From: Escherichia coli
GTDB taxonomy: Bacteria > Pseudomonadota > Gammaproteobacteria > Enterobacterales > Enterobacteriaceae
Length of the DNA stretch: 64,000 nt
Assembly (NCBI RefSeq): GCF_013315695.1
Contig: NZ_CP054354.1
Direction: 5' to 3' (one strand)
How positions within the stretch are numbered: the first letter of the stretch is position 1; every line of letters begins with the position of its first letter. Positions 1 through 13,928 of the stretch are shown here, in pieces. Made by a program: the position numbers and the translations under genes. Under the pieces are notes generated by a model. It was not told the origin of the DNA. It saw only the letters and a list, made by a program, of their open reading frames with translations, and did no database searches.

Positions 1-36
1 CCCCGCCGGAGACGGGGCGGCAGCAAGGGAGATACC

Positions 37-474
37 GTGATGAAAACTGAACTGACCCTGAATGCCCTGCAGTCCATGAACGCACAGGAATATGAAGATA
101 TCCGTGCTGCGGGAAGCGATATGCGCCGTAATCTCACTCACGAGGTGATGCGTGAAGTGGACGCACCGGCTAACTGGGTGATGAACGGAGAGTATGGCAG
201 TGAGTTCGGGGGCTTTTTCCCCGTCCAGGTTCGTTTCACGCCAGCCCACGAACGTTTCCACCTGGCATTATGTTCGCCGGGAGACGTCTCTCAGCTCTGG
301 ATGCTGGTTCTGGTGAATGGTGGTGGACAGCCTTTCGCCGTCGTTCAGGTGCAACATATCTTCACGCCTGTCGCGATCAGTCACACGCTGGCGCTTGCCG
401 CGACACTGGATGCGCAGGGATACAGTGTTAACGACATCATCCATATCCTGATGGCAGAAGGAGGTCAGGCATGA
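37..474 (+). CDS. psiB: PsiB-like plasmid SOS-inhibition protein
   Basis: 145 aa; N-terminus MKTELTLN... matches PsiB as I recall it; GGAGG RBS; stop overlaps start of following 239-aa ORF (ATGA), the classic psiB-psiA arrangement; leading-region context. Confidence 0.6.
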
Positions 475-1190
475 GCGCACGTTCACGGGCACTGATCCCC
501 CTCAGCGCAGAACAACAGGCCGCCATGCAGGCGGTGGCTGTCACAGAACAACGTCGTCGTCAGGGACGCACACTTTCAGCATGGCCTTATGCCACCGCTT
601 TCTTTCGCTGCCTGAATGGCAGTCGCCGGATTTCGCTGACCGATCTCCGCTTTTTTGCCCCTGCGCTGACGAAGGAGGAATTTCATGGCAACCGTCTCCT
701 GTGGCTGGCTGCCGTGGATAAACTGATTGAAAGTTTTGGGGAAGTCTGTGTTCTTCCCCTGCCATCCGATGCGGGGCACCGTCTGTTCCCGTCCGTGCCT
801 TTTCGTGAAGGTGAGCGTCGTCGTCAGAAAACCACGCTGACAGAGCAGAAATACAGCCGCCAGCGGGAACGTGAGGCAGAACGACGGGAACTGGAATACC
901 AGACATGTTTTGCTCAGGCGCAGATTGACCTTGCGTTTCATACTCCCGCCACGGTCGGAAGCTGGTTGTCCCGCTGGTCTGGTGTTGTTGAGGAGCATGA
1001 TCTGGAAACGATTTTCTGGGGGTGGTGCGGGCGTTTTCCATCACTGTCATCATTTGACCGGTTTTTCTGGCAGGAGGAACCACTCTGGCGGCTGATTTTT
1101 GAAGCCGGTGAGGCCGGTCGTGGTGCACCGGTACAGGTACGTGCACTTGAGCAGTGGATGATCCCGAACAAGCTGGAGAACGTAATATGA
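471..1190 (+). CDS. psiA: PsiA-like protein
   Basis: 239 aa (same length as F PsiA); translationally coupled to psiB; GGAGG 6 nt upstream of ATG 471. Confidence 0.55.
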
Positions 1191-1783
1191 TGAAATCAGA
1201 CGAAAAATACCAGGTTCCCGCGTGGATGCGACCTCTGTTGCCGTTGCTCTGCAACACCGGGGGGAACGATCCGGAAGAACTGCTGAATGATACAGAAACC
1301 ACTGCCAGTGCGAATGTTGTCCGTTATGTACTGATAGTTGCTGTGCGGTCGCAGGTTGATCTGCTGCAGCTTCTGTACAGGAAAGGGCTGTTGCGCACAG
1401 AGATACCAGGTGGCTTTTCACCGGAAGAAGCGCAGGCACTCCTGGATAATCTGGTGCGCAGCCATATCAGCAAGGCGCTGTCGGGCGAGCGAATGGCAGC
1501 CCGTGACAGAAATGCCGATCTGGCCTGGATTGGACAGCAACTGGTCGATGCCGCCTGGTTTGTCCGTGCCACACTGGAAGCGCATGGGATGAGCGTCGGA
1601 AATGAGAGTCCCCCTGCTCCGCCGGAGACAATGCCGGACATACAGACACGGGAACTGGTGATGTTGATCAAGCGACTGGCATCATCGCTGAAAGCGGTGA
1701 AACCGGACAGTTGTGTGGTGCGTGAAGCGCAGGACTGGCTGCGCGACAGAAAACTTGTGGATATCACAGATATTCTCCGGTGA
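1187..1783 (+). CDS. hypothetical leading-region protein
   Basis: ORF 1154..1783; likely start ATG 1187 (MMKSDEKYQ) after GGAGA; no recognisable motif. Confidence 0.45.
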   Translation: MMKSDEKYQVPAWMRPLLPLLCNTGGNDPEELLNDTETTASANVVRYVLIVAVRSQVDLLQLLYRKGLLRTEIPGGFSPEEAQALLDNLVRSHISKALSGERMAARDRNADLAWIGQQLVDAAWFVRATLEAHGMSVGNESPPAPPETMPDIQTRELVMLIKRLASSLKAVKPDSCVVREAQDWLRDRKLVDITDILR

Positions 1784-2244
1784 ACCAGGCATGTATATTT
1801 TACGCAGGGACATGCCGGTCATGATCGTTTCGTTCCAGGGGTGGTCTGGAGATCATGCGGTGTGCTCCCTGCTCTCGCCGGAATAAGGACGTCGCCGCCG
1901 GCTCCGCTTTTACCCGGCCATGCGGGGCATGGCCTTGTGGGTTTTCAGTTATGTGGCCGCCGTGTCGTGTGCGGGCTGTGCCGTGCCTCCATCGTAGCCG
2001 GGCTTCTGCGGGCGGGATGCAAGGTAAGATGAACCGCTGCGGTCACCCGGTCCCTCCTTCCCGTCTGCCGTGATTTTCCGGTCGTTCACCCGCTCAGATT
2101 TCGCGGTCTCACCCTCCAACTCCCGCCAGCCGTGTGCGTCAGGCTGCGGCTTCCCTTGCGCCCTTGCATCCCTGCAGGCCCGGCAAAGATGGAGGCACGG
2201 CACCGCCCGGTGTCGCAGAACATGTGACTATGGAGGATTCGGGA

Positions 2245-2745
2245 ATGTCTGTTGTTGCACCTGCTGTATACGTTGGAACCTGGCACAAATACAACTGTGG
2301 AAGCATCGCTGGCCGCTGGTTTGACCTGACAACGTTTGATGATGAACGCGACTTTTTCGCCGCCTGCCGTGCCCTTCACCAGGATGAAACCGACCCGGAA
2401 CTGATGTTTCAGGATTATGAGGGATTCCCGGGGAATATGGCCTCTGAATGCCATATCAACTGGGCCTGGGTTGAAGGCTTCCGCCAGGCGCGGGATGAAG
2501 GCTGCGAAGAGGCTTATCGTCTCTGGGTGGATGATACCGGTGAGACGGATTTTGACAGCTTCCGCGATGCCTGGTGGGGCGAGGCTGACAGTGAGGAGGC
2601 TTTTGCGGTTGAGTTCGTCAGTGATACCGGCCTGCTGGCTGACGTGCCGGAGACGGTGGCGCTCTATTTTGACTATGAGGCGTATGCGCGGGATTTATTC
2701 CTGGACTCCTTCACCTTTATTGACGGTCATGTGTTCCGTCGGTGA
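2245..2745 (+). CDS. ardA: ArdA-family antirestriction protein
   Basis: MSVVAPAVYVGTWHKYNCGSIAGRWF... and C-terminal YFDYEAYARDLFLDSFTFI match ArdA hallmark motifs; acidic; start chosen at ATG 2245 after GGAGG (ORF track start 2134 is probably an N-terminal over-extension). Confidence 0.8.
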   Translation: MSVVAPAVYVGTWHKYNCGSIAGRWFDLTTFDDERDFFAACRALHQDETDPELMFQDYEGFPGNMASECHINWAWVEGFRQARDEGCEEAYRLWVDDTGETDFDSFRDAWWGEADSEEAFAVEFVSDTGLLADVPETVALYFDYEAYARDLFLDSFTFIDGHVFRR

Positions 2746-3112
2746 TTTACTCCCCGCTCCGGCGGGGGGATGGCCTGCCAGGCCCCCGGAAAACCCTGGC
2801 AGGCTTACGCCTGCCTGAAATACAGGAGGGCCGCGCCTGCGGCGCTACCCTTCCTGCCTGTCATAGTGTGAGGCATTTTTCTGTTTTGTCGTTTCTGTTG
2901 TTCTGACTCCCGGGGGCGGGGACACCCTTCGGCTCCCGGCTGCCTGGCGGCATCCGGTCGTCAGGCCCGACTCCGACAGGCAGCTGCTGGCGCACCCGCC
3001 AGTCTCCGCCGAACCCGCTGGCGCGGTTTCGGGCTGCCGCTACGGTCCGATGTCTGAAAAACCAGGCTTGCAGCGACCGTTCCGGTCGCGCCGCCTCTGT
3101 CGCGCCGTGACC

Positions 3113-3433
3113 TGCGCTCCCTGCACACCTGACGGTGTGTAAGGAAACTGCGCCTGATGGCGCAGTTGTCTGCCCTTCCGCCGCCCCCCCTGCGGCCTGT
3201 TTCCCCGCTGTGGACTTTCCGGGGGCTGAAGCGGCCACAACACGTTTCAGCCGTCCAGGGGAGAGATGTACCAGCCACAAAACTTTTTGCCGCAAGCGTC
3301 AAAAACTTTTGCGTCTGCCCCCGGACAACTGCCCCGTGCCGTGGCAGTCGCTGCCCCATCGGAAAGGTCCACTGCGGGGAGAAACCCCGAAGAAGTGGAC
3401 GGCAGAAGGGGCTTTCGCCCCTCCGGGGGAGCA
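3113..3433. repeat. copy A of ~320-bp GC-rich noncoding repeat (candidate ssDNA promoter or leader element)
   Basis: High nucleotide identity by eye to 6481..6795; similarity does not respect reading frame (ORFs drawn in the two copies diverge after a shared MYQPQNFLPQASKTFASAPGQLPR); lies directly upstream of a + strand gene. Confidence 0.7.
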
Positions 3434-3477
3434 ACCGGTCGGCCCGGCGACCTGATTCAGCAGAAGGAGACGTTTTC

Positions 3478-3912
3478 ATGACAGTCAGCAGCACGATTTC
3501 CGTTTTTTGCCGCGACGGGGTGTTCCGTACCGTTTACTGCCACCTGCACGGTGAGCCGACCTGGAACGGTCGCATCCTGCATACCCACTATGCCACCGGT
3601 CAGCAGGCCGAAGCCCTGGTTGAACACGGTGATATCCGTTGCCTCGGTCCCCGTTGCGACAAACCCGCCGGGCATACGCTTCAGAACCCGGTGGACGGTG
3701 TGACGGCTTATTACGGACGTGACAGTGGTTTCCGGATGGACAGTGAGGCGCGTGAGTACCGTTCTTTCAGGGAGGCCATCGCCACGGAAAGCACTGAAGA
3801 GGTGCGCTTCCATTATGTGTTCATCGACGGCTACTGGAAGGTGATGTACCGCACGCCGGAAGGCTGGAAGATGAAAGCGCTCGCGCTGGCACTGCGTCGC
3901 TGTCCGGAATGA
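3478..3912 (+). CDS. hypothetical protein, 144 aa, Cys/His-containing
   Basis: Internal ATG 3478 of ORF 3157..3912 (MTVSSTISVF...); upstream part of the track ORF lies in repeat A; followed by a hairpin. Confidence 0.5.
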   Translation: MTVSSTISVFCRDGVFRTVYCHLHGEPTWNGRILHTHYATGQQAEALVEHGDIRCLGPRCDKPAGHTLQNPVDGVTAYYGRDSGFRMDSEAREYRSFREAIATESTEEVRFHYVFIDGYWKVMYRTPEGWKMKALALALRRCPE

Positions 3913-3917
3913 AAAAA

Positions 3918-3945
3918 AGCAGGGCGATAAACCCTGCCTTTCTCC
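3918..3945 (+). terminator. putative hairpin terminator
   Basis: agcaggg-cgataaa-ccctgc stem-loop followed by a T-rich tract, just after the stop at 3910-3912. Confidence 0.35.
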
Positions 3946-4004
3946 GCTGGCGCTTCCCCGTACGGAAGTCCGGCATCTCATTCACTAACTATGGAGATTA
4001 TGCC

Positions 4005-4271
4005 ATGAGACCATCAATTATCTTCGCAACCGCCGAGTATGTAAAGCGTCTGCGAGAAGAGTGCCTGCGGGAGAACAAACCCCTGCACCGCCATACCCGC
4101 TTCAGACGCCAGGAACTGGCACCGGATGAGATTAACCCGGACGTCCTGGCGATGGGCGGTCATATCGCCAGACGCTGCAGTGAGCAGAAGCGGGTACGTA
4201 TCCCCGCCATGAAAGTCAGCGAATGGGGCCACCTGCTCCGCGCGCTTGAAATTGAACGGGTCTGTCACTGA
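4005..4271 (+). CDS. hypothetical protein, 88 aa
   Basis: ATG 4005 with GGAGA 7 nt upstream (MRPSIIFATAEY...); ORF 3909..4271. Confidence 0.4.
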   Translation: MRPSIIFATAEYVKRLREECLRENKPLHRHTRFRRQELAPDEINPDVLAMGGHIARRCSEQKRVRIPAMKVSEWGHLLRALEIERVCH

Positions 4272-4447
4272 TTAACCCCTGCCGTCTGCCTGTGCAGGTG
4301 GCAGGATGTGTTCAGGTACTTTACCAGGAGGAACCGTGAGCAAGATGAAAAACATCACGACGTCTGTGTTGCATGGTGTCTCCACAAAAAACAGAAAAGG
4401 GAAACAGATTCTCTTTCATTCAGGGCCCGGGAGGGCTGGAGATAACA

Positions 4448-4837
4448 ATGAAGTCTTGTTTTGATACTGACAAAGCTTTTCATATGTCTTTTGATGAAGT
4501 CACTTTCAACGCTGACAGAATTCGCTCAAAACTGGAACTATTATCCGAAGAACTAATGCCCCGTTGTGGTCTTGTTTATGAGCTATATCAGCGACGTTTG
4601 AGTGCTGCTATTGATAATTTTGTGGCCACATTGCCGACAGAACAACATCTACTGGTCCTGGAACTGGCCCGTGAGGAGTTTGATTACCTTTCCGCAGAAG
4701 AGATTGCTGAAGAAATACGCCGTGACTCAGAACGCGGCTATTGTTGTCATGGCTTTGAACGCAATTGCTGTCCTCTCGGTTGTGGGGATTTGGGCGATGA
4801 TTGCTGCGATGCTGCTGATTTGATGGAGGAACCGTGA
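4448..4837 (+). CDS. acidic protein with Cys-rich C-terminus, 129 aa
   Basis: ATG 4448 after GGAG (MKSCFDTDKAF...); many D/E; C-terminal CCHGFERNCCPLGCGDLGDDCCDAAD; stop TGA overlaps GTG start of rpn (GTGA). Confidence 0.5.
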   Translation: MKSCFDTDKAFHMSFDEVTFNADRIRSKLELLSEELMPRCGLVYELYQRRLSAAIDNFVATLPTEQHLLVLELAREEFDYLSAEEIAEEIRRDSERGYCCHGFERNCCPLGCGDLGDDCCDAADLMEEP

Positions 4838-5748
4838 GTAAGAAGAAAAACACCACAACGCCCACGCCGCATGATGCCGCGTTCCGGTCGTTCCTGGCGA
4901 ATCCCGACGTCGCCAGAGATTTTCTGGAACTGCATCTTCCTGCGGAGTACCGGCAGTTGTGCGACCTGTCCACGCTGAAGCTGGAACCCGCCACCTTTGT
5001 AGAGCCGGACCTGCATCAGTACGCCAGCGATATCCTCTGGAGCGTGAAAACCACCGGGGGTGAAGACGGCTATGTTTATACGCTCATCGAGCACCAGAGC
5101 ACAGAAAATCTGTACATGCCTTTTCGCATGTTACGCTACAGTGTGGCGGCGATGCAGAGACATCTGGAGCAGCACAAAACGTTGCCACTGGTGATTCCGG
5201 TGCTGTTCTATCACGGTGAGCGCAGCCCGTACCCGTACAGCATGAACTGGCTGGACTGTTTTGAGAATCCGGCACTTGCGGCTAAAATATACACAAAACC
5301 GTTTCCGCTGGTTGATATCACTGTCGTTGATGACAATGAAATCATGAATCATCGCCGGATGGCCGCACTGACGCTGCTGATGAAGCATATCCGCCATCGT
5401 GACATGATGGAGCTGCTGGACAAACTCCCGCAGGTCATGGTGGAAATTTCAGACGAGCAGGTGCGTGTTCTGATTCATTACATCGTTAACGCAGGGGACT
5501 CTGTATCACCGGAATTTATGCGGGCGCTGGCTGAGCGTCTGCCGCAGCATGAGGATAAACTGATGACTATCGCAGAACGTCTTGAGCAAAAAGGTCGCCA
5601 GGAAGGCAGGATGGAAGGACGCATGGAAGGAGCGCTTGAAAAAGCCCTGGCTATTGCGTGCCAGCTTCAGAAAATGGGGATGACGCCGGAGCAGATTAAG
5701 CAGGCTACCGGACTTTCCGATGACGAACTGAAGAAAATCACTCACTGA
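4834..5748 (+). CDS. rpn: Rpn-family recombination-promoting nuclease (YhgA-like, PD-(D/E)xK)
   Basis: 304 aa; N-terminal and core match the Rpn/YhgA-like family; C-terminal tail MTIAERLEQKGRQEGRMEGRMEG...; GTG start after GGAGG. Confidence 0.75.
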   Translation: MSKKKNTTTPTPHDAAFRSFLANPDVARDFLELHLPAEYRQLCDLSTLKLEPATFVEPDLHQYASDILWSVKTTGGEDGYVYTLIEHQSTENLYMPFRMLRYSVAAMQRHLEQHKTLPLVIPVLFYHGERSPYPYSMNWLDCFENPALAAKIYTKPFPLVDITVVDDNEIMNHRRMAALTLLMKHIRHRDMMELLDKLPQVMVEISDEQVRVLIHYIVNAGDSVSPEFMRALAERLPQHEDKLMTIAERLEQKGRQEGRMEGRMEGALEKALAIACQLQKMGMTPEQIKQATGLSDDELKKITH

Positions 5749-5761
5749 TGAGAACCGCAAA

Positions 5762-5786
5762 GCCCGGCAAAATCCCGGGCTTTTTT
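5762..5786 (+). terminator. rho-independent terminator after rpn
   Basis: gcccgg-caaaatc-ccgggc stem-loop followed by TTTTTT. Confidence 0.65.
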
Positions 5787-5810
5787 GCCTGCAGGAGCAG
5801 AGCAAACAGC

Positions 5811-5981
5811 ATGACGATTGCAGAACGTCTTATACAGAAAGGTTTTGAAAAAGGTGCTCTTGAAGTGGCGCGGGAAATAGCCTGCCGGCTGCGGGATATG
5901 GGCTGGACGCCGGAACGGATTCAGGAGGCGACCGGACTTTCCGGTGAAGAACTGAAAAAGCTGTTTCCTGATGAGCAGTAG
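5811..5981 (+). CDS. standalone Rpn C-terminal-tail-like small protein (RpnS-like)
   Basis: 56 aa from ATG 5811: MTIAERLIQKGFEKGALEVAREIACRLRDMGWTPERIQEATGLSGEELKKL closely parallels the last ~60 aa of the upstream Rpn. Confidence 0.55.
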   Translation: MTIAERLIQKGFEKGALEVAREIACRLRDMGWTPERIQEATGLSGEELKKLFPDEQ

Positions 5982-6011
5982 CCTGGCATTCTGCCAGGCT
6001 GTGAATCACGC

Positions 6012-6263
6012 TCACACATCCTCTGCCGTTTCCCCCAGTTCATTTTCCAGTCGCCTGATGATATCTGCCTTACGCATCCCCTGCATGTGAGGCAGCAGGT
6101 CACGGACTGAAAGTGCCTGGGTGGTCCTCCAGACGGTGACATCCACCTGCTCCGCATTTTCCCAGGCGTGCCATGTTCTCTGTGTCACGCCAAATTCTCT
6201 GGCCGCTTTTTCGCGTGACCAGAGCATGCTTTTTCGCCAGATTCGCAGTTCCCAGCCGGTCAT
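6012..6263 (-). CDS. XRE-like helix-turn-helix regulator
   Basis: 83 aa; ...REKAAREFGVTQRTWHAWEN... resembles an HTH DNA-binding motif; AT-rich promoter region with palindromes upstream. Confidence 0.55.
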   Translation of the reverse strand: MTGWELRIWRKSMLWSREKAAREFGVTQRTWHAWENAEQVDVTVWRTTQALSVRDLLPHMQGMRKADIIRRLENELGETAEDV

Positions 6264-6277
6264 AAAATACCTTTTAA

Positions 6278-6298
6278 AAAGTGAAAAAACTTCACTTT
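6278..6298. promoter_or_regulatory. palindromic operator-like site AAAGTGAA-N5-TTCACTTT
   Basis: Perfect 8-bp inverted arms with 5-nt spacer, just upstream of the minus-strand HTH gene start. Confidence 0.4.
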
Positions 6299-6344
6299 AT
6301 TTTATCACCATAATCACCAAATCAGCGCGAAAAATAAATGTGAA

Positions 6345-6365
6345 AAAGTGAAGAAATTTCACTTT
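6345..6365. promoter_or_regulatory. second palindromic operator-like site AAAGTGAA-N5-TTCACTTT
   Basis: Same arms as 6278..6298, 67 bp away. Confidence 0.4.
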
Positions 6366-6480
6366 TTTTAGTTGTAGATGTCGTGCTGTTTTCTCTGTTT
6401 TCACCTGTGCGGGAGTGGGTGTCAGTGACCACCACATGCCATTGTTGTGCCGTCGTTTTTCTTCAGTCGCGCCGGATGCA

Positions 6481-6795
6481 GCGCTCCCTGCACACCTTAC
6501 GGTGTGTAAGGCCACTGCGCCTGATGGCGCAGCTGTCTCTGCCTGTCTGCCGCCGCACTGCGGCCTGTTCTCCGCAGACGGACTTTCCGGGGAACATACA
6601 CGACCACATCCCGTTTCAGTTATCCAGGGGAGAGATGTACCAGCCACAAAACTTTTTGCCGCAGGCGTCAAAAACTTTTGCGTCTGCCCCCGGACAACTG
6701 CCCCGTGACGTGGTGAGCATCCCCCGTCGGAAAGGTCCACTGCGGGGAAATCCCCGAAGACCCGGACGGCAGAAGGAGCTTCGCTCCTCCGGGAA
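6481..6795. repeat. copy B of ~320-bp GC-rich noncoding repeat
   Basis: See copy A; lies directly upstream of the gene starting at 6841. Confidence 0.7.
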
Positions 6796-6840
6796 ATGAC
6801 CTGGCTGACCCGGCAGTCGTGACGATGAGGAGACAATGTG

Positions 6841-7689
6841 ATGAATCAGACTTTACCCACTGCTGACCTGAATACTGCCGGCACGACAGATGTTATTCCG
6901 TCTGTAGCTATCGACCGCATCATCGCGCAGCGTAACGAAGGTATTGCACTGTTCATGCAGGCGATGGAATGCCTGGCGACAGCGCGCAAGATTCTGCTCG
7001 ATGCGTCAGGTGATATTTTTCTTTACGGGTTTGAAGACTGCGTGACTGATTCCGTTCGTCGCATGGATAAGACGGAAGAAGCGAAAAGGAATATCACCCG
7101 TCTTGCCGACCGGAAAATCTGGGACCGCCTGATGACAGATACGGGCATGTACACCTTCATGAGTTCATGCCAGCGTGATGAGTGGAACAGCCAGCTGATG
7201 AGCGACACCTGTCCTGAAATCACCCTGGACAATGTACTGGCAACATTCCGCCATCTTAATGCCAGCAAGATGCAGACGTTTGAACAGGGGCTGATTGATG
7301 TCTACCGGAAATTGTCATGGGATTACAGAACCAATAATCCCTGCCGTCTGGGTAAGAAAATCATTATTGAAAACCTACTGTACCGCTGGAGTAACGGGCG
7401 TGTGACGCTGGACTGCAGCGGACGGGAGGCACTGGATGACCTGGTACGTCCGTTTTATCTGCTGGAGGGGCGCAACGTTCCTGACTTCAGGAACAGCATC
7501 GGGGCGCAGTATGGTGAATTTCTCGGGAACGGTGACAATGTCGGTAAGCTGTTAGAAGGGGAATATTTTACGGTGCGTGGCTACCAGAAAGGGACCGTAC
7601 ACATTGTCTTTAAGCGTTCTGACCTTGTTGAAAAACTGAATGATATTATTGCACGGCATTATCCTGGTGCATTGCCGCCACGAGTCTGA
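6841..7689 (+). CDS. hypothetical leading-region protein, ~282 aa
   Basis: ORF 6838..7689; ATG 6841 with GAGGAG 8 nt upstream; no recognisable motif. Confidence 0.55.
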   Translation: MNQTLPTADLNTAGTTDVIPSVAIDRIIAQRNEGIALFMQAMECLATARKILLDASGDIFLYGFEDCVTDSVRRMDKTEEAKRNITRLADRKIWDRLMTDTGMYTFMSSCQRDEWNSQLMSDTCPEITLDNVLATFRHLNASKMQTFEQGLIDVYRKLSWDYRTNNPCRLGKKIIIENLLYRWSNGRVTLDCSGREALDDLVRPFYLLEGRNVPDFRNSIGAQYGEFLGNGDNVGKLLEGEYFTVRGYQKGTVHIVFKRSDLVEKLNDIIARHYPGALPPRV

Positions 7690-7755
7690 TTAAACAGAAA
7701 AGCCCAGGTATTTATGCCGGGGCTTTTTTTTCTGTAATCATCATAATCTCAGAAC

Positions 7756-7774
7756 ACAATGTGACATTGTCACA
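7756..7774. promoter_or_regulatory. overlapping perfect palindromes ACAATGT-G-ACATTGT / TGTGACA-T-TGTCACA
   Basis: Read directly from sequence between two convergent genes. Confidence 0.3.
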
Positions 7775-8110
7775 TCAATTGTTGTTCATATCGATGCCAT
7801 CTTTCCTGCCTGAATCTGTCTTTTTAGGTGCTGTTTTAGAGGAAGAACGGCGGGATGGTTTTTTCGATTCTGCTTCCCGAATAATGTCACGAAGTGCTTT
7901 CTCTCCTACTTCATATCCTGCATTTTTGAGCGTGTCACGAACATCTGTCAGTGTATAACCCTTTGTCCTTACCAGGATAATGATGTCATCACGAATGGCA
8001 TCAAGAAAATCACGCAATGTTTTCCGTTGAGCGGTGAGGTCTGGCAATTCCGATAAAGCAGCTTTTGCCAGCTGGATGTCATCATCTGAGTAAAATTTTT
8101 TAGACGCCAT
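7775..8110 (-). CDS. hypothetical basic protein next to oriT, possibly DNA-binding
   Basis: ORF 7775..8116; ATG at 8110 with GGAGA upstream; Lys/Arg-rich C-terminus; divergent from nikA. Confidence 0.45.
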   Translation of the reverse strand: MASKKFYSDDDIQLAKAALSELPDLTAQRKTLRDFLDAIRDDIIILVRTKGYTLTDVRDTLKNAGYEVGEKALRDIIREAESKKPSRRSSSKTAPKKTDSGRKDGIDMNNN

Positions 8111-8116
8111 TGGCAC

Positions 8117-8342
8117 TTTCTCTCCGTTTAATGTTGAAGCCTGATTTTATCATCAAAAACTGCCTCCTGGCAGGGCTGCGCCCTGCCTCTGCCGTCTGCA
8201 TAAGACTATGATGCACAAAAATAACAGGCTATAATGGACTGAAAAACGGGACAGGATGTGTAATCGTATAACCGCGCACGCACGGCTATACGATTACCAC
8301 CTGGTCAGGGCTTAGCCCCGACACCCCGGTAAGGAGCAGACC
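8117..8342. other. candidate origin of transfer (oriT)
   Basis: Intergenic region upstream of nikA; perfect 11-bp inverted repeat GTAATCGTATA (8260..8270) / TATACGATTAC (8287..8297); on the minus strand the repeat is followed 2 nt later by ATCCTG (8252..8258), resembling the MobP nick motif ATCCTG|C; second inverted repeat CAGGGC-TGC-GCCCTG nearby. Confidence 0.55.
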
Positions 8343-8675
8343 ATGAGTGAGAAGAAAACCCGAAGTGGCAGTGAGAAACGGCAAAAGAATGTCCTCATTG
8401 CTGTTCGTTTTTCACCAGAAGAGGCTGAGATTGTTAAAGAAAAGGCAGAAAAAAACGGACTGACAGTTTCAACTCTGATAAGAAAAACTGTGCTGGGAAA
8501 ACAGATAAATGCCCGCATTGACGAAGATTTTTTGAAAGAGCTGATGCGTCTTGGTCGCCTGCAGAAGCATCTGTTTGTGGAAGGAAAACGCACGGGAGAT
8601 AAAGAGTATGCAGAGGTTCTCGTTGCTATTACAGAGCTTGCTAATACTCTGCGAAGAAATTTAATGGGACGCTGA
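8343..8675 (+). CDS. nikA: NikA-like relaxosome accessory protein (ribbon-helix-helix)
   Basis: 110 aa, same size as R64 NikA; AGGAG RBS; directly upstream of the relaxase. Confidence 0.65.
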   Translation: MSEKKTRSGSEKRQKNVLIAVRFSPEEAEIVKEKAEKNGLTVSTLIRKTVLGKQINARIDEDFLKELMRLGRLQKHLFVEGKRTGDKEYAEVLVAITELANTLRRNLMGR

Positions 8676-8686
8676 GATAATCGCTG

Positions 8687-11407
8687 ATGAATGCCATCAT
8701 TCCGAAAAAAAGACGTGACGGAAAGTCTTCTTTTGAAGACCTGATTGCGTACACCTCAGTGCGGGATGATGTGCCGGAAGATGAACTCAGGCCTGACACG
8801 GAAATGAAAGCTGAGATTCCGCACCGGAACCGCTTCAGACGTCTTGTTGATTATGCAACACGTCTGCGTAATGAAAAATTTGTTTCCCTGATTGATGTGA
8901 TGAAAGACGGCAGTCAGTGGGTGAATTTCTATGGTGTGACCTGCTTTCATAACTGTTTGTCTCTTGAATCTGCGGCTGAAGAAATGCAGAAAGCAGCAGA
9001 GCTTGCTCATTTTTCCAAAGATGATACAGACCCTGTTTTTCACTATATTCTCTCCTGGCCTGCGCACGAAAGTCCGCGTTCTGAGCAGCTTTTTGACTGT
9101 GTGCGTCACACCCTGAAATCCCTTGAGCTGTCAAAACATCAGTATGTGGCAGCCGTTCATACAGACACGGATAACCTGCATGTACATGTTGCAGTGAATC
9201 GTGTCCACCCTGAAACCGGCTATATCAATTGCCTTCCGTGGAGCCAGGAAAAACTCAGTCGTGCATGCCGTGAACTTGAACTTAAGCACGGATTCGCGCC
9301 GGATAATGGTTGCTTTGTACATGCACCGGGCAATCGTATTGTGCGCAAAACAGCGCTGGTACGTGAGCGCCGTAATGCCTGGCGACGCGGGAAAAAGCAG
9401 ACGTTCAGGGAATATATTGATCAGATGTCGATTGCCGGGCTGCGTGAAGAGCCAGCACAGGACTGGTTATCTTTGCATAAACGGCTGGCCAGTGATGGTC
9501 TGTATATCACGATGCAGGAAGGGGAACTGGTGGTGAAGGATGGCTGGGACAAAGCGCGGGAAGGTATTGCACTCAGTTCGTTCGGACCGTCATGGACAGC
9601 TGAAAAACTGGGGCGGAAACTGGGGGAATATCAGCCTGTACCGACAGATATTTTCAGTCAGGTGGGGACACCCGGTCGTTATGATCCGGAAGCCATAAAC
9701 GTTGATATCCGGCCGGAAAAAGTGGCAGAAACGGAGAGTCTGAAACAGTACGCCTGCCGTCATTTTGCCGAACGCTTACTGGCAATGGCGCGCAATGGTG
9801 AACTGAAAAGCTGCCTGGCTGTACACCGTACTCTGGCAGAGGCGGGATTATGGATGGGGATTCAACACGGGCATCTGGTACTGCATGATGGATTTGATAA
9901 ACAACAGACACCAGTACGTGCAGACAGTGTGTGGCCGTTAATGACGCTGGATTACATGCAGGATCTGGATGGTGGATGGCAGCCTGTACCGAAGGATATT
10001 TTTACTCAGGTCGTTCCCGGAGAACGATTCCGGGGACACAGTATTGGCTCTCAGCCTGTCAGTGATTACGAATGGTATCGCATGAGGATGGGCACAGGTC
10101 CGCAGGGGGCTATAAAGCGTGAACTGTTTTCTGATAAGGAAAGTCTGTGGGGATACGGCCTTATTCAGTGCAGGAGCCTGATTGAAGAGATGATAGCTGA
10201 CGGGGATTTCAGCTGGCAGGCATGTCATGAGATGTTTGCACGTAAAGGGCTTATGCTGCAGAAACAGCATCATGGTCTTGTGATTGTGGATGCGTTTAAT
10301 CATGAGCTGACACCGGTGAAGGCCAGCAGTATCCATCCTGATTTGACGTTATCCCGTGCCGAGCCTCAGGCCGGGCCATTTGAAATTGCGGCTGCAGATA
10401 TTTTCGAACGGGTGAAGCCTGAATGTCGTTACAATCCGGAACTTGCTGCCAGTGATGAAGTGGAACCCGGCTTCCGGCGCGATCCTGAGATTCGTCGTGA
10501 GCGCCGTGAAGCCCGTGCAGCTGCGCGGGAAGATTTGCGTGCGCGTTATCTTGCATGGAAGGAGCACTGGCGTAAACCCGACTTACGTTACGGAGAACGG
10601 TTACGGGAAATTCATGCTGCCTGCCGTCGGCGCAAGGCGTATATCCGTGTGCAGTTCCGGGATCCACAATTGCGTAAGCTGCATTACCATATTGCGGAAG
10701 TGCAGCGTATGCAGGCGCTGATCAGGCTGAAGGAGAGTGTGAAGGAAGAGCGGTTGTCACTGATTGCGGAGGGTAAGTGGTATCCTTTGTCCTACCGGCA
10801 GTGGGTGGAACAACAGGCGGCTCAGGGAGACAGGGCTGCAGTATCGCAGTTACGTGGCTGGGATTATCGTGATCGTCGCTCGCGTAATAAGGATAAAAGA
10901 CGCACAACTAATGTTGATCGTTGTGTCGTACTCTGCGAACCCGGAGGAACGCCACTTTTTAATAATGTTGCAAAACTTGAAGCTCGTCTTCAGAAAAATG
11001 GAAGTGTTCATTTCAGGGATACGCGGACAGGAAAAAATGTCTGTACGGATTACGGAGATCGGGTTGTTTTCTACCATCACACGGACCGAAATGAACTGGC
11101 AGAGAAGCTTGATTTAATTGCGCCAGTTCTGTTCAGCCGCAACGGAAAGCTTGGTTTTGAGCCGGAAGGTTCATACCAGCAGTTTAATGATGTGTTTGCA
11201 GAAATGGTGGCCTGGCACAATGCAGCGGGAATAACCGGAAACGGACACTTCACCATTACTCGTCCGGACGTGGATTTGCACCGTCAACGCAGTGAGCAGT
11301 ATTACCGGGAATATATCAGACAGCAGACCCGTTTATCGGAGAGCCATGATGATAATTATACGTTACGGCAGGAGAAAACATGGGAGCCACCATCACCTGG
11401 AATGTAA
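8687..11407 (+). CDS. nikB: NikB-like MobP-family relaxase
   Basis: 906 aa; HTDTDNLHVHVAVNRV fits the relaxase HxDxxxxHxHxxxN histidine motif; size close to R64 NikB. Confidence 0.75.
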   Translation: MNAIIPKKRRDGKSSFEDLIAYTSVRDDVPEDELRPDTEMKAEIPHRNRFRRLVDYATRLRNEKFVSLIDVMKDGSQWVNFYGVTCFHNCLSLESAAEEMQKAAELAHFSKDDTDPVFHYILSWPAHESPRSEQLFDCVRHTLKSLELSKHQYVAAVHTDTDNLHVHVAVNRVHPETGYINCLPWSQEKLSRACRELELKHGFAPDNGCFVHAPGNRIVRKTALVRERRNAWRRGKKQTFREYIDQMSIAGLREEPAQDWLSLHKRLASDGLYITMQEGELVVKDGWDKAREGIALSSFGPSWTAEKLGRKLGEYQPVPTDIFSQVGTPGRYDPEAINVDIRPEKVAETESLKQYACRHFAERLLAMARNGELKSCLAVHRTLAEAGLWMGIQHGHLVLHDGFDKQQTPVRADSVWPLMTLDYMQDLDGGWQPVPKDIFTQVVPGERFRGHSIGSQPVSDYEWYRMRMGTGPQGAIKRELFSDKESLWGYGLIQCRSLIEEMIADGDFSWQACHEMFARKGLMLQKQHHGLVIVDAFNHELTPVKASSIHPDLTLSRAEPQAGPFEIAAADIFERVKPECRYNPELAASDEVEPGFRRDPEIRRERREARAAAREDLRARYLAWKEHWRKPDLRYGERLREIHAACRRRKAYIRVQFRDPQLRKLHYHIAEVQRMQALIRLKESVKEERLSLIAEGKWYPLSYRQWVEQQAAQGDRAAVSQLRGWDYRDRRSRNKDKRRTTNVDRCVVLCEPGGTPLFNNVAKLEARLQKNGSVHFRDTRTGKNVCTDYGDRVVFYHHTDRNELAEKLDLIAPVLFSRNGKLGFEPEGSYQQFNDVFAEMVAWHNAAGITGNGHFTITRPDVDLHRQRSEQYYREYIRQQTRLSESHDDNYTLRQEKTWEPPSPGM

Positions 11408-11515
11408 GCCCGGATAAGTGATGGTGCAAAGATTCAGCCCAAAAACGGCAGGAATCTTCGTCAATAAGGGCGGGAGTAGTCACTGAATTGAGTTTATACC
11501 CGGTTAACTCTGAAT

Positions 11516-11539
11516 TAAGGGCCGTGTCTGCGGCCCTTA
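11516..11539. terminator. hairpin between convergent nikB and trbC
   Basis: Perfect 9-bp stem TAAGGGCCG / CGGCCCTTA with 6-nt loop. Confidence 0.5.
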
Positions 11540-11627
11540 TCCAGTGCGCCGTAAAACCCCGGACTTAGTGAACAGGGTTTTACAGTCTGATTGACAGATA
11601 TGGTCACCAGAAAATATTTGTATTCCT

Positions 11628-13928
11628 TCAGTATTTTTCGTCAGTTGTTGGTTGTGCTCCACATGATTTCTGGGGATGATCATTATTTATTGTCTTCGAT
11701 TTATTATTTTCAGCGACCGGTAACAGTATCTCCAGGGGGAGCAGGGTATTCAGAATCGCCTTCACTGAAGGTATATCTTCAGGACCGGAGTGTTCCTCTT
11801 CCGGACGATTCAGTGTGATATAACATACCCGGCGTTCTTCCCTGGTTGTGTTATTGATAGTGTGCACAGCCTTTTTCCACAGTTCGTTTGCCCGGGATTC
11901 GATATCTGTATCATATTGCGGAAGCAGATCCAGTGATGTCTGCGCTGTTGCCAACCGGCGCTGGAATGTATCAATGATACGGTAAGGCTCTGTACGGTTT
12001 TTACGACGTTTACGGGATGGTTTTGCTGTCAGTACACCGATGATGCTGCTGACATGCTCCGGTGTGGGGAGCCTGCGCTGCACTGTCCTGGGGACGAGAC
12101 GGCGGAGACGCTCCAGCCGGGGGGCTTCAACGGAAATATAGCGGTTGATGACCACCGGATCACTGTCGCAACTTTTCTCGCTGTCCGGAATATACACAGA
12201 GGCTGACGGCACCACATCCCCCTGGAAAACGGTAAAGAACTCACCGGCATTCAGTCTGATCAAATCCTGCACGTCGATTTTGCTTTCCATCTGGATGGTG
12301 ATCTGGTTACCGTCCACCCAGGACTCACCCATCACACCATCGTGGCGCTGCAGGCTGCCCATTCTGGCCCGTGCCTCTTCACCGGCGGCATTTTTCACCG
12401 TTCTTGCCGTTTTGTCGTCACTGACAATGCGTCCGGCGAATTTGGTGCCGGCGTTCTGCATCAGTGTGGCGGTGTTGGTGGCGGAGGTCTGCCCTTCAAT
12501 TCGCTCCTGATCCTGCGCCATCATTATCAGGGAAAACTCCAGTGAACGTACCTGGGTGGCCTCCACAGCAATGCGGTCTGTGTAGTAGGCACCGACTTCG
12601 TCAAGGATACAGATATAGGGGAAGCTGCCTTTGTATTTTTTGACTTCCAGGGTCTGTGCATCTGTGCCTTCCAGGCGGTAGCCCAGGTCACGGGCGAGGA
12701 GCATGCTCTGCTGGGTGACGAACATACGACCGAGTGCCGACGTGGTATGGGCCGATGTGTCCAGTGCAGGGATCATCACAATCAGAATGCGGTCGCTGTG
12801 AATACTGTCGCGAATATCGATATCGCCGGCATCTGCCGCAAAGACGTCCCCGAAGGTTTCGGCAAAGGTTGTGAACGTTTCCGAGAACTGACCGGAGAGA
12901 TAAGCATGCTGTTTACGGGGCTCCTCAGTCCAGGCTGACGGCGTTCTCACCAGTGACATATCGAATCCCGGGACATCCTGCAGGTAGTTTCGCAGTGGTG
13001 CGATAGCTTCTTCCGGCCACTGGTCATCAAGGCCACGGCAATAGAGTTTTGCCATCCCTTCCAGCGTCATATGTTCCCGTAACATCTGCAGGGACATGGT
13101 TTTACCTTCCCGGACGCACCAGAATTTTGTGCCAAAGACCAGGGCTTTGTTCATGGCTATCGCCCGTGACTGCCATTCACCGCCCTGAACGTTCTGGGGC
13201 AGCATGGACTGCATGGTTTCGGCGGTGAAGGCTTCGGTGCTGAATGCGAACGGGTTCCAGGTGTTTGACTGTGGGCGGGATTTATCGCCACTCTGAATGA
13301 CTTCACTGCGGGATTTTCCGCCGTTCATGAAGTTGATGACTTCGATATCATCCTCCCTGCCAAAACGTCGGGAGAGATACCAGATTGTCCTCGTGGTATC
13401 GTTCTGTGCCTTGCCGTCAACAAAGGTAAAGCCTCTTCCCCAGCAGAGCGGGTTGAGCAGCCAGGCAAAGGTGGTTTCTGTTTTACCGCCACCGGTGGTG
13501 GCAAAAAACATGACATGCCGGGTGAGGTCATCCATGCTCAGCCAGAGTTCGCGACCGATATCGTTGATACGGCGGTAACCGACATAAAAAATCCCCCGGG
13601 CGGGGAATGTTTCATCCGCTTCATACTGAAACAGGGTGGGCCAGAAGCTGAAGAGGCTTCTCCTGACCTTTCTGTCCTGGGAGGGGTCATCAAGGCTGAG
13701 TGTCATGGGCATACGCAGGGGGCATCGCCAGCGTTGCAGCATGAATATCACGGAGGTGACCAGGGTGAACAGCAGGCAGACAGGAAGGGCCAGTGGCCAT
13801 ATCAGCGCCGTAATGATACTGCCGGCCAGACACAGACCAGTGATGTTCAGGTTATGCAGTGCATTCCACAACGGGTTTCCCCAGGCCGTGCGGTGTATGA
13901 GGTCAGGATTAACGTGGTGCTGGCTCAT
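11628..13928 (-). CDS. trbC: TrbC-like type IV coupling protein (DotL/IcmO-like)
   Basis: 766 aa; N-terminal TM segments; Walker A FATTGGGKTE; size and position match R64 TrbC. Confidence 0.75.
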   Translation of the reverse strand: MSQHHVNPDLIHRTAWGNPLWNALHNLNITGLCLAGSIITALIWPLALPVCLLFTLVTSVIFMLQRWRCPLRMPMTLSLDDPSQDRKVRRSLFSFWPTLFQYEADETFPARGIFYVGYRRINDIGRELWLSMDDLTRHVMFFATTGGGKTETTFAWLLNPLCWGRGFTFVDGKAQNDTTRTIWYLSRRFGREDDIEVINFMNGGKSRSEVIQSGDKSRPQSNTWNPFAFSTEAFTAETMQSMLPQNVQGGEWQSRAIAMNKALVFGTKFWCVREGKTMSLQMLREHMTLEGMAKLYCRGLDDQWPEEAIAPLRNYLQDVPGFDMSLVRTPSAWTEEPRKQHAYLSGQFSETFTTFAETFGDVFAADAGDIDIRDSIHSDRILIVMIPALDTSAHTTSALGRMFVTQQSMLLARDLGYRLEGTDAQTLEVKKYKGSFPYICILDEVGAYYTDRIAVEATQVRSLEFSLIMMAQDQERIEGQTSATNTATLMQNAGTKFAGRIVSDDKTARTVKNAAGEEARARMGSLQRHDGVMGESWVDGNQITIQMESKIDVQDLIRLNAGEFFTVFQGDVVPSASVYIPDSEKSCDSDPVVINRYISVEAPRLERLRRLVPRTVQRRLPTPEHVSSIIGVLTAKPSRKRRKNRTEPYRIIDTFQRRLATAQTSLDLLPQYDTDIESRANELWKKAVHTINNTTREERRVCYITLNRPEEEHSGPEDIPSVKAILNTLLPLEILLPVAENNKSKTINNDHPQKSCGAQPTTDEKY

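Follow-up and report, generated by a model that had tools for sequence, protein, structure and literature searches.

Among the major carriers of extended-spectrum beta-lactamase genes are the IncI1 plasmids, and the first minutes after their entry into a new host decide whether transfer succeeds. We analyzed a 64,000-nucleotide stretch of Escherichia coli DNA (contig NZ_CP054354.1 of assembly GCF_013315695.1; hereafter the window), whose positions 1-8340 make up the leading region of a conjugative plasmid of type IncI1, and studied five open reading frames (ORFs) in this region that have no assigned function: ygaA (1187-1783), ygcA (3478-3912), ygdA (4005-4271), a ccgAII homologue (4448-4837) and ygfB (6841-7689). 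An earlier, sequence-only reading had placed these ORFs in the leading region of a conjugative plasmid, beside psiB, psiA and ardA and pointing to its origin of transfer (oriT), and had proposed them as candidate anti-defence genes. The location, the neighbors and the orientation were all borne out by the results given below.

When window positions 1-8400 were used as a megablast query, more than 5000 plasmid records were matched, with at least 1708 records covering at least 80% of the query. The top match, NZ_CP146671.1, is 99.6% identical over the full length and was typed as replicon IncI1/B/O, relaxase MOBP and mating-pair type MPF_I, and its RefSeq coding sequence calls include all five ORFs, with the same coordinates. 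The plasmid pESBL-EA11 of E. coli O104:H4 is collinear with window 1-8337 at 97% identity, and its six corresponding proteins are 97-100% identical to those of the window; therefore, experiments done with pESBL apply to the window almost directly. Gene names were taken from the IncI-gamma/K plasmid pCH42, which carries R64-style names on the same genes.

The gene series starts on the + strand with psiB, the conjugation SOS inhibitor (37-474; NCBIfam NF010255, E 6e-80, with Pfam PF06290 matched by this gene in identical loci), and psiA (471-1190; NF010258, E 5e-113), which overlaps the psiB stop by 4 nucleotides. These are followed, all on the + strand, by ygaA (198 amino acids; Hp15 in pESBL; named YgaA in UniRef), ardA, encoding the anti-restriction DNA mimic (2245-2745; Pfam PF07275; PHROG 2059, E 6e-30; isoelectric point (pI) 4.08, net charge -25), ygcA (144 amino acids; Hp16; PHROG 1987, E 5e-21), ygdA (88 amino acids; Hp17; named YgdA in UniRef), the ccgAII homologue (129 amino acids; Hp18), which overlaps the start of rpn by 4 nucleotides, and ygfB, also called ydiA (282 amino acids), which encodes a stand-alone protein of the Pfam family DUF4942. 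The oriT core lies at 8245-8325 on the - strand, with an 18-nucleotide inverted repeat at 8260-8297, after which the - strand reads CACATCCTGTCCCG; the position of the nick is presumably that of R64 oriT. Beside oriT, nikA begins at 8343. The five ORFs are found 0.5-7 kb from the oriT core, with nikA and nikB on the opposite side of oriT, and all five are on the + strand, pointing to oriT. Based on the orientation of R64 oriT and on the F map, the transferred strand (T-strand) is the - strand, which passes into the recipient from oriT with its 5' end leading, and all five ORFs are templated by it.

ORF length is not evidence of coding here, in DNA of 57% GC where many spurious ORFs of 100-250 amino acids are found in other frames. 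All five ORFs have a Shine-Dalgarno sequence, GGAG or AGGAG, located 7-9 nucleotides before the start codon, and length is kept in homologues of CcgAII at 50-75% identity, of YgfB at ~50% identity (514 proteins), of YgdA down to 35% identity (66 cluster representatives), and of YgcA at ~28-38% identity in 62 phage records detected by tblastn. Comparison with pCH42 gave ratios of nonsynonymous to synonymous substitution rates (dN/dS), based on small substitution counts, of 0.06 for ygcA, 0.08 for ygdA and 0.26 for ygfB, with 0.04 for psiB and 0.13 for ardA as reference genes. The five ORFs are real, conserved genes, and the three measured (ygcA, ygdA and ygfB) are under purifying selection.

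Hairpins of the entering strand and the operons behind them

Hairpins of the kind that serve as promoters on single-stranded DNA (ssDNA) were found on the - strand. One class-1 (Frpo/ssi-type) element precedes ygcA-ygdA-ccgAII-rpn (3060-3477, core repeat 3096-3427), and another precedes ygfB (6425-6840, core repeat 6463-6793). When the - strand was folded as DNA and compared with shuffled controls, the two elements gave -129 kcal/mol (z = -8.6) and -105 kcal/mol (z = -6.2), respectively. A class-2 element lies before ardA (1885-2237, - strand), with long arms at 1972-2003 and 2178-2209 that form a 32-nucleotide inverted repeat of 91% complementarity (fold z = -4.5). The two ~330-nucleotide core repeats are 84% identical, and the 99.6% identical record has, upstream of its ssb gene, a third class-1 copy that is 86% identical to that at 3060-3477. 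The ardA element, ~350 nucleotides in length, is 96% identical to a copy upstream of klcA (locus L001) and 90% identical to a region of the F plasmid upstream of a klcA-like gene, while the class-1 repeat resembles two F regions, one upstream of ssb and the other upstream of a small ORF after hok/flmA. In all, three class-1 and two class-2 copies are located exactly upstream of ssb, ygcA, ygfB, klcA and ardA. Among the three IncI1 and two F copies that were aligned, 15 of 98 predicted base pairs are kept by changes on both sides. A scan of the + strand upstream of these genes detected no sigma-70-like site.

The hairpin layout of the window agrees with the promoter classes described for pESBL, in which six operons are transcribed from ssDNA promoters, three of class 1 (ssi1-3, Frpo-like), two of class 2 (ardA and klcA) and one of class 3 (M.EcoGIX), with start sites confirmed by 5' rapid amplification of cDNA ends and with induction, measured at the operon level, of up to ~500-fold at 15 min after transfer (Wen et al., 2025; PMC12672017). 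The assignment of a hairpin-before-operon layout to each of the five ORFs is new here. Judged by position, the operons would be ssb-...-psiB-psiA-ygaA, ardA alone, ygcA-ygdA-ccgAII-rpn, probably with a 77-amino acid ORF after rpn, and ygfB alone. The ygaA start overlaps the psiA stop by 4 nucleotides, and ygaA is translationally coupled to psiA as the last gene of its operon; the hairpin heading this operon, upstream of ssb, was seen only in the 99.6% identical record.

All five Frpo/ssi copies have an unpaired bulge on their main hairpin, in its 3' arm (~3258-3269 and ~6625-6636 on the - strand of the window; alignment columns 159-168). It reads GGTACATCT in the window, and TGTTCATTT and TGTGCATTT in F. 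This conserved bulge may be the open -10 region of a single-strand promoter.

Products of the five genes

Searches with all five proteins against NCBIfam, Pfam, PHROG and PADLOC returned only PHROGs of unknown function, except for the DUF4942 match and one methyltransferase PHROG for YgfB, and a weak PRTase_III-A match for CcgAII. PDB searches, with single sequences and with family profiles, gave nothing significant. None of the five ORFs was assigned to a housekeeping or maintenance family; such an assignment is one of the outcomes that the sequence-only reading had named as counting against its proposal.

YgaA, for which no match was detected in Pfam, NCBIfam or PDB, contains a module at residues 73-151 that is common to Ea22 proteins of lambdoid phages (56% identical to that of phage PhiR5_1, E 6e-26), and two PHROGs of unknown function, 660 and 924, were matched by its C-terminus. 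YgcA, with no match in Pfam or PDB, has homologues in jumbo phages (GAP32, Serratia BF and Erwinia phages), T4-like vibriophages (KVP40) and cyanophages (S-BM3), with the conserved motifs YCHWDGYP, YYGRD and Y-x-F-x-DG-x-W-x-V. This protein is publicly annotated as PndC, which is misleading; a post-segregation killing role was rejected because NCBIfam gave no match and the homologues are soluble phage proteins of 130-240 amino acids. An Rfam scan of positions 1-12000 (E <= 0.1) detected no family, and so no match to a hok/sok-type antisense RNA beside ygcA. The YgdA family, also without a match in PDB or an assignment in Pfam, is strongly basic (median pI 10.8, net charge +10) and carries the C-terminal motif VRIPAM...WG..LR.LE. 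Despite weak HU-CCDC81 Pfam matches in 2 of 34 members, an HU/IHF-like identity for YgdA was rejected, as hhalign against E. coli HupA gave a probability of only 0.1.

The 129-amino acid CcgAII protein, which the sequence-only reading had described as acidic and as having the composition of a DNA mimic, is indeed acidic (pI 4.38, net charge -16, 22% Asp+Glu; family median pI 4.4). Its invariant or nearly invariant residues are C99, H101, C107, C108 and C112, together with an ELYQRRLS helix. In the AlphaFold2 (AF2) model, with a mean predicted local distance difference test (pLDDT) score of 81, a four-helix bundle at residues 22-95 is followed by the Cys/His segment, and the C-terminus is an acidic Cys-rich tail, so that the predicted protein looks like a small metal-binding protein. 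CcgAII matched nothing in Pfam or NCBIfam, ArdA PF07275 included, and no relationship in sequence or fold to ArdA or Ocr was found; it is like them in acidity and in its early place in the leading region, but differs in having a conserved Cys/His cluster rather than arrayed carboxylates. The public annotation as the cobalamin biosynthesis protein CbiX is misleading, and a CbiX cobaltochelatase was rejected because no CbiX domain was detected in Pfam or NCBIfam searches. CUP-controlled genes (ccg) were reportedly described by Delver and Belogurov in 1997 in the IncN plasmid pKM101/R46, within its leading region. CcgAII of pKM101/R46 and the window protein have in common a core of ~100 residues that includes the Cys/His cluster. 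They differ in that the window protein has an extra acidic Cys-rich tail of ~17 residues, and its gene stands in a cassette in front of rpn, in an operon behind a Frpo/ssi-type hairpin rather than a CUP repeat.

The helical domain of CcgAII gave weak matches to the PADLOC profile PRTase_III-A, the retron type III-A effector, in 5 of the 12 family members tested (including the homologues P0012, P0043, P0044 and P0053), always at profile positions ~4-68 of 290 and with E values from 6e-5 to 0.03. This likeness may reflect either a real shared module or noise from helical composition.

In the window, ccgAII is an accessory cassette (~4379-4824) inserted between ygdA and rpn and flanked by a 79% identical duplication. 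The left scar, at 4327-4378 on the + strand, repeats in diverged form the ribosome-binding site of rpn and its first codons (4825-4876; repeat D5). The cassette is present in ~500 of the 2565 plasmids with this segment, and in pCH42 rpn directly follows ygdA. The gene next to it, rpn (ygdB; Hp19 in pESBL; 4834-5748, + strand), encodes a PD-(D/E)XK recombination-promoting nuclease of the Rpn family (TIGR01784, E 2e-53; PF04754 and HTH_Rpn_C), and an early-expressed nuclease within a leading region is odd in itself. CcgAII was rejected as an obligate Rpn partner, because most plasmids that carry rpn are without ccgAII and the F-type homologues are not beside rpn. The 77-amino acid ORF after rpn (5748-5981, + strand) resembles the Rpn C-terminal domain: it has two direct repeats (D2 and D9) in common with the 3' end of rpn, matches PHROG 3300 at positions 246-310 and gives a faint PF27070 match. 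Rpn proteins are reported to be toxic anti-phage nucleases controlled by a small C-terminal Rpn_S (Rpn_L/Rpn_S; bioRxiv 10.1101/2023.05.02.539157), and this ORF may encode a free-standing antitoxin of the Rpn_S type.

YgfB, for which the AF2 model has a mean pLDDT of 86, is ~27% identical to phage DUF4942-methyltransferase fusions such as gp22 of Pseudomonas phage phiPSA1 and gp32 of Marinomonas phage P12026, in an alignment that takes in all of YgfB and the N-terminal 270-280 residues of the fusions. DUF4942 in phages occupies this N-terminal part of proteins of 520-545 amino acids, whose C-terminal part matches methyltransferase Pfam families; in phiPSA1 gp22, NPPY (residue 475) and motif I (at LEPSAGMGG) are both outside the part aligned with YgfB. 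Unlike these fusions, YgfB ends before the C-terminal catalytic domain, and when its sequence was read by eye, no S-adenosylmethionine motif I or (D/N)PP(Y/F) was noticed. The single 'DNA methyltransferase' PHROG match reflects the phage fusions. By sequence comparison, YgfB corresponds to the non-catalytic N-terminal module of phage N6-adenine methyltransferases. Since it has no counterpart of the phage catalytic domain, the many database entries that call it a 'methyltransferase' are probably mistaken. We also considered whether YgfB and a plasmid methyltransferase could be the two parts of a split phage fusion, and rejected this idea for both candidates, M.EcoGIX and the methyltransferase beside a YgdA homologue, neither being significantly similar to the phage catalytic domain.

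A proposed role in early establishment and counter-defence

Leading regions are enriched in anti-defence genes located on the T-strand, with Frpo-type promoters in front of them (Samuel et al., 2024; Nature 635:186; PMC11541004), and the Supplementary Table of that study lists family 1 (YdaB/YdfB/YgdA) at median position 6 from oriT, family 23 ('PndC') at position 7, family 24 (DUF4942, YdiA/YgfB) at position 1, family 65 ('Uncharacterized; Anti-restriction CcgAII') at position 5, and family 835 (Eaa/YgaA). Matched by name and position rather than by sequence clusters, these appear to be the same families as our five ORFs. The idea that they are anti-defence candidates is thus already published; the present analysis contributes a dissection of the region gene by gene, together with corrected annotations.

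The five ORFs are like ssb, psiB, ardA, klcA and M.EcoGIX (of ColIb-P9, R64, pESBL and F) in their orientation, in the hairpin classes before them and in their operon setting with psiBA and ardA. They differ from ssb, psiB, ardA and klcA in that the latter have an assigned activity. Diverged homologues also recur in similar surroundings elsewhere: a CcgAII homologue in F-type plasmids is two genes from DUF932-SLT-traM, in the same orientation; a YgdA homologue adjoins N6_Mtase and KlcA/ArdB genes, without rpn; and a YgfB homologue in a Pantoea plasmid lies between KlcA-DUF1380 and DUF905-ParB-PsiB-PsiA. These recurrent neighborhoods support a role linked to plasmid entry.

Our preferred explanation, which we consider probable, is that the five ORFs are early establishment genes behind entry-induced hairpin promoters, and that at least some of them neutralize host defences. 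According to the literature on pESBL, 97% identical to the window, hairpins in the entering strand would rebuild duplex promoters on ssDNA, host RNA polymerase would transcribe the operons within minutes of entry, and transcription would drop once the complementary strand is made. The five products would then act as establishment factors during the first minutes in the new host. In this scheme, CcgAII, acidic and helical, might bind metal and block a host protein by binding to it. YgfB might be a partner module whose action, on DNA or restriction-modification proteins, involves no methylation, the small basic YgdA might bind nucleic acids, and YgcA and YgaA might be modules shared with phages. 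The hairpin operons, the entering-strand template and the gene neighborhoods make the anti-defence proposal of the sequence-only reading plausible and reasonable, if generic.

Several observations weigh against this explanation. None of the five products resembles a characterized anti-defence protein in sequence or fold. When the F leading region was searched with six proteins, the five ORF products among them, none was present. Inspection of the hairpin arms by eye gave no -35 or -10 boxes that could be assigned with confidence. The ccgAII gene is absent from ~80% of related plasmids, and is therefore not essential for establishment. Finally, HerB (YfjB), a ParB-like protein encoded just upstream of psiB, is zygotically induced and reprograms host transcription rather than acting on defence (2026 preprint; PMC13370423), so that 'early' need not mean 'anti-defence'. 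Transposon sequencing of pESBL showed that Hp15-Hp19 (ygaA, ygcA, ygdA, ccgAII and rpn) are non-essential and that transfer in a permissive laboratory mating does not require them, nor does it require ArdA or PsiB (PMC4288162); such dispensability is expected of counter-defence genes, and is equally compatible with other roles.

The example of HerB raises the alternative that the five ORFs are early establishment genes acting on host physiology or on plasmid DNA transactions, not on immune systems, with possible roles in transcription reprogramming, ssDNA protection or processing, recombination, or relief of acquisition cost. The extreme basicity of YgdA would suit nucleic-acid binding, ygcA, ygdA and ccgAII are probably co-transcribed with a recombination-promoting nuclease, and YgaA has a module in common with lambdoid Ea22. 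We regard this alternative as somewhat unlikely, because homologues of YgdA, CcgAII and YgfB recur beside KlcA/ArdB, ArdA-type genes and methyltransferases, and YgcA is also found in virulent jumbo and T4-like phages, which need no plasmid-type establishment functions. The operon shared with rpn could also mean that ygcA, ygdA and ccgAII encode accessories or regulators of an Rpn toxin-antitoxin or defence module, making this part of the leading region a plasmid-borne defence or addiction cassette. Such a module would fit with the toxicity of Rpn proteins and their control by small Rpn_S proteins, with the free-standing Rpn C-terminal-like ORF, and with the 4-nucleotide overlap of ccgAII and rpn, as would be seen with an upstream antitoxin. 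This possibility is made very unlikely by the ~80% of ygcA-ygdA-rpn plasmids that are without ccgAII, by the location of F-type CcgAII homologues away from rpn, and by the YgdA homologue that accompanies a methyltransferase and ArdB with no rpn nearby.

The remaining alternatives concern CcgAII alone, or the reality of the genes. A DNA mimic of the ArdA/Ocr kind that blocks type I restriction enzymes, as the sequence-only reading had suggested for CcgAII, agrees with its ArdA-like charge and composition, with the acidity of the whole family and with the label 'Anti-restriction' given by Samuel et al. to family 65 (PMC11541004). However, CcgAII has no ArdA Pfam match and more Lys+Arg than ArdA, and its invariant residues do not form rows of carboxylates but belong to the Cys/His cluster and to a helix that looks buried; we consider a mimic quite improbable, although the acidity in the earlier description stands. 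That the five ORFs are chance or decaying frames without function might be argued from the many long spurious ORFs in other frames and from the lack of a laboratory phenotype in transposon sequencing. The ribosome-binding sites, the low dN/dS, the confident AF2 models for two of the proteins, and the conserved length of homologues, 35-60% identical, from phages and other plasmid types make this exceedingly unlikely.

Within the preferred explanation of early establishment genes with some counter-defence activity, we tentatively raise the possibility, which we hold to be less likely than its opposite, that the five proteins include at least one counter-defence factor of a new kind. For example, CcgAII could be a metal-dependent decoy, whose helical domain, weakly similar to the phosphoribosyltransferase effector of retron type III-A over its N-terminal 65 residues, disarms that retron or a related effector. 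YgfB could be a methyltransferase partner module that, without its enzyme, sequesters restriction-modification subunits or marks incoming ssDNA. The five genes are found in thousands of sequenced plasmids, and their pESBL operons are among those most strongly induced after transfer. Their remaining interest is that of five abundant genes, probably strongly induced on entry, without an assigned function. Their targets, once assigned, would account in part for the passage of such plasmids across strain barriers, and could lead to new inhibitors of bacterial immunity.

Neighboring genes and public annotations

Between the 77-amino acid ORF and the ygfB hairpin lies ygeA (6012-6263, - strand), an XRE-type helix-turn-helix regulator (RefSeq annotation; PHROG 6962 and 2328) that, being on the opposite strand, is not templated by the transferred strand. 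Its family is family 22 of Samuel et al., who relate it to the anti-CRISPR-associated aca6 (PMC11541004). An AT-rich stretch beside ygeA (6264-6369) contains a repeated palindrome, AAAAAGTGAA...TTCACTTT (direct repeat D6, inverted repeat I2), and looks like a candidate operator or promoter of ygeA.

The gene yggA (7775-8110, - strand; 111 amino acids), located between ygfB and oriT, is often mis-annotated, its public name being 'molybdopterin-guanine dinucleotide biosynthesis protein MobC'. This is misleading, as are 'PndC' for 3478-3912, 'cobalamin biosynthesis protein CbiX' for 4448-4837 and 'methyltransferase' for 6841-7689, and no underlying family features were found for any of the four annotations.

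On the other side of oriT, nikA (window 8343-8675) differs from that of pCH42 (9372-9704 of locus L021) by ~62 synonymous and ~58 non-synonymous changes, with a dN of 0.27, whereas the leading-region genes differ by a few percent. This contrast suggests that oriT is a recombination boundary, with a shared leading region on one side and divergent relaxosome genes on the other.

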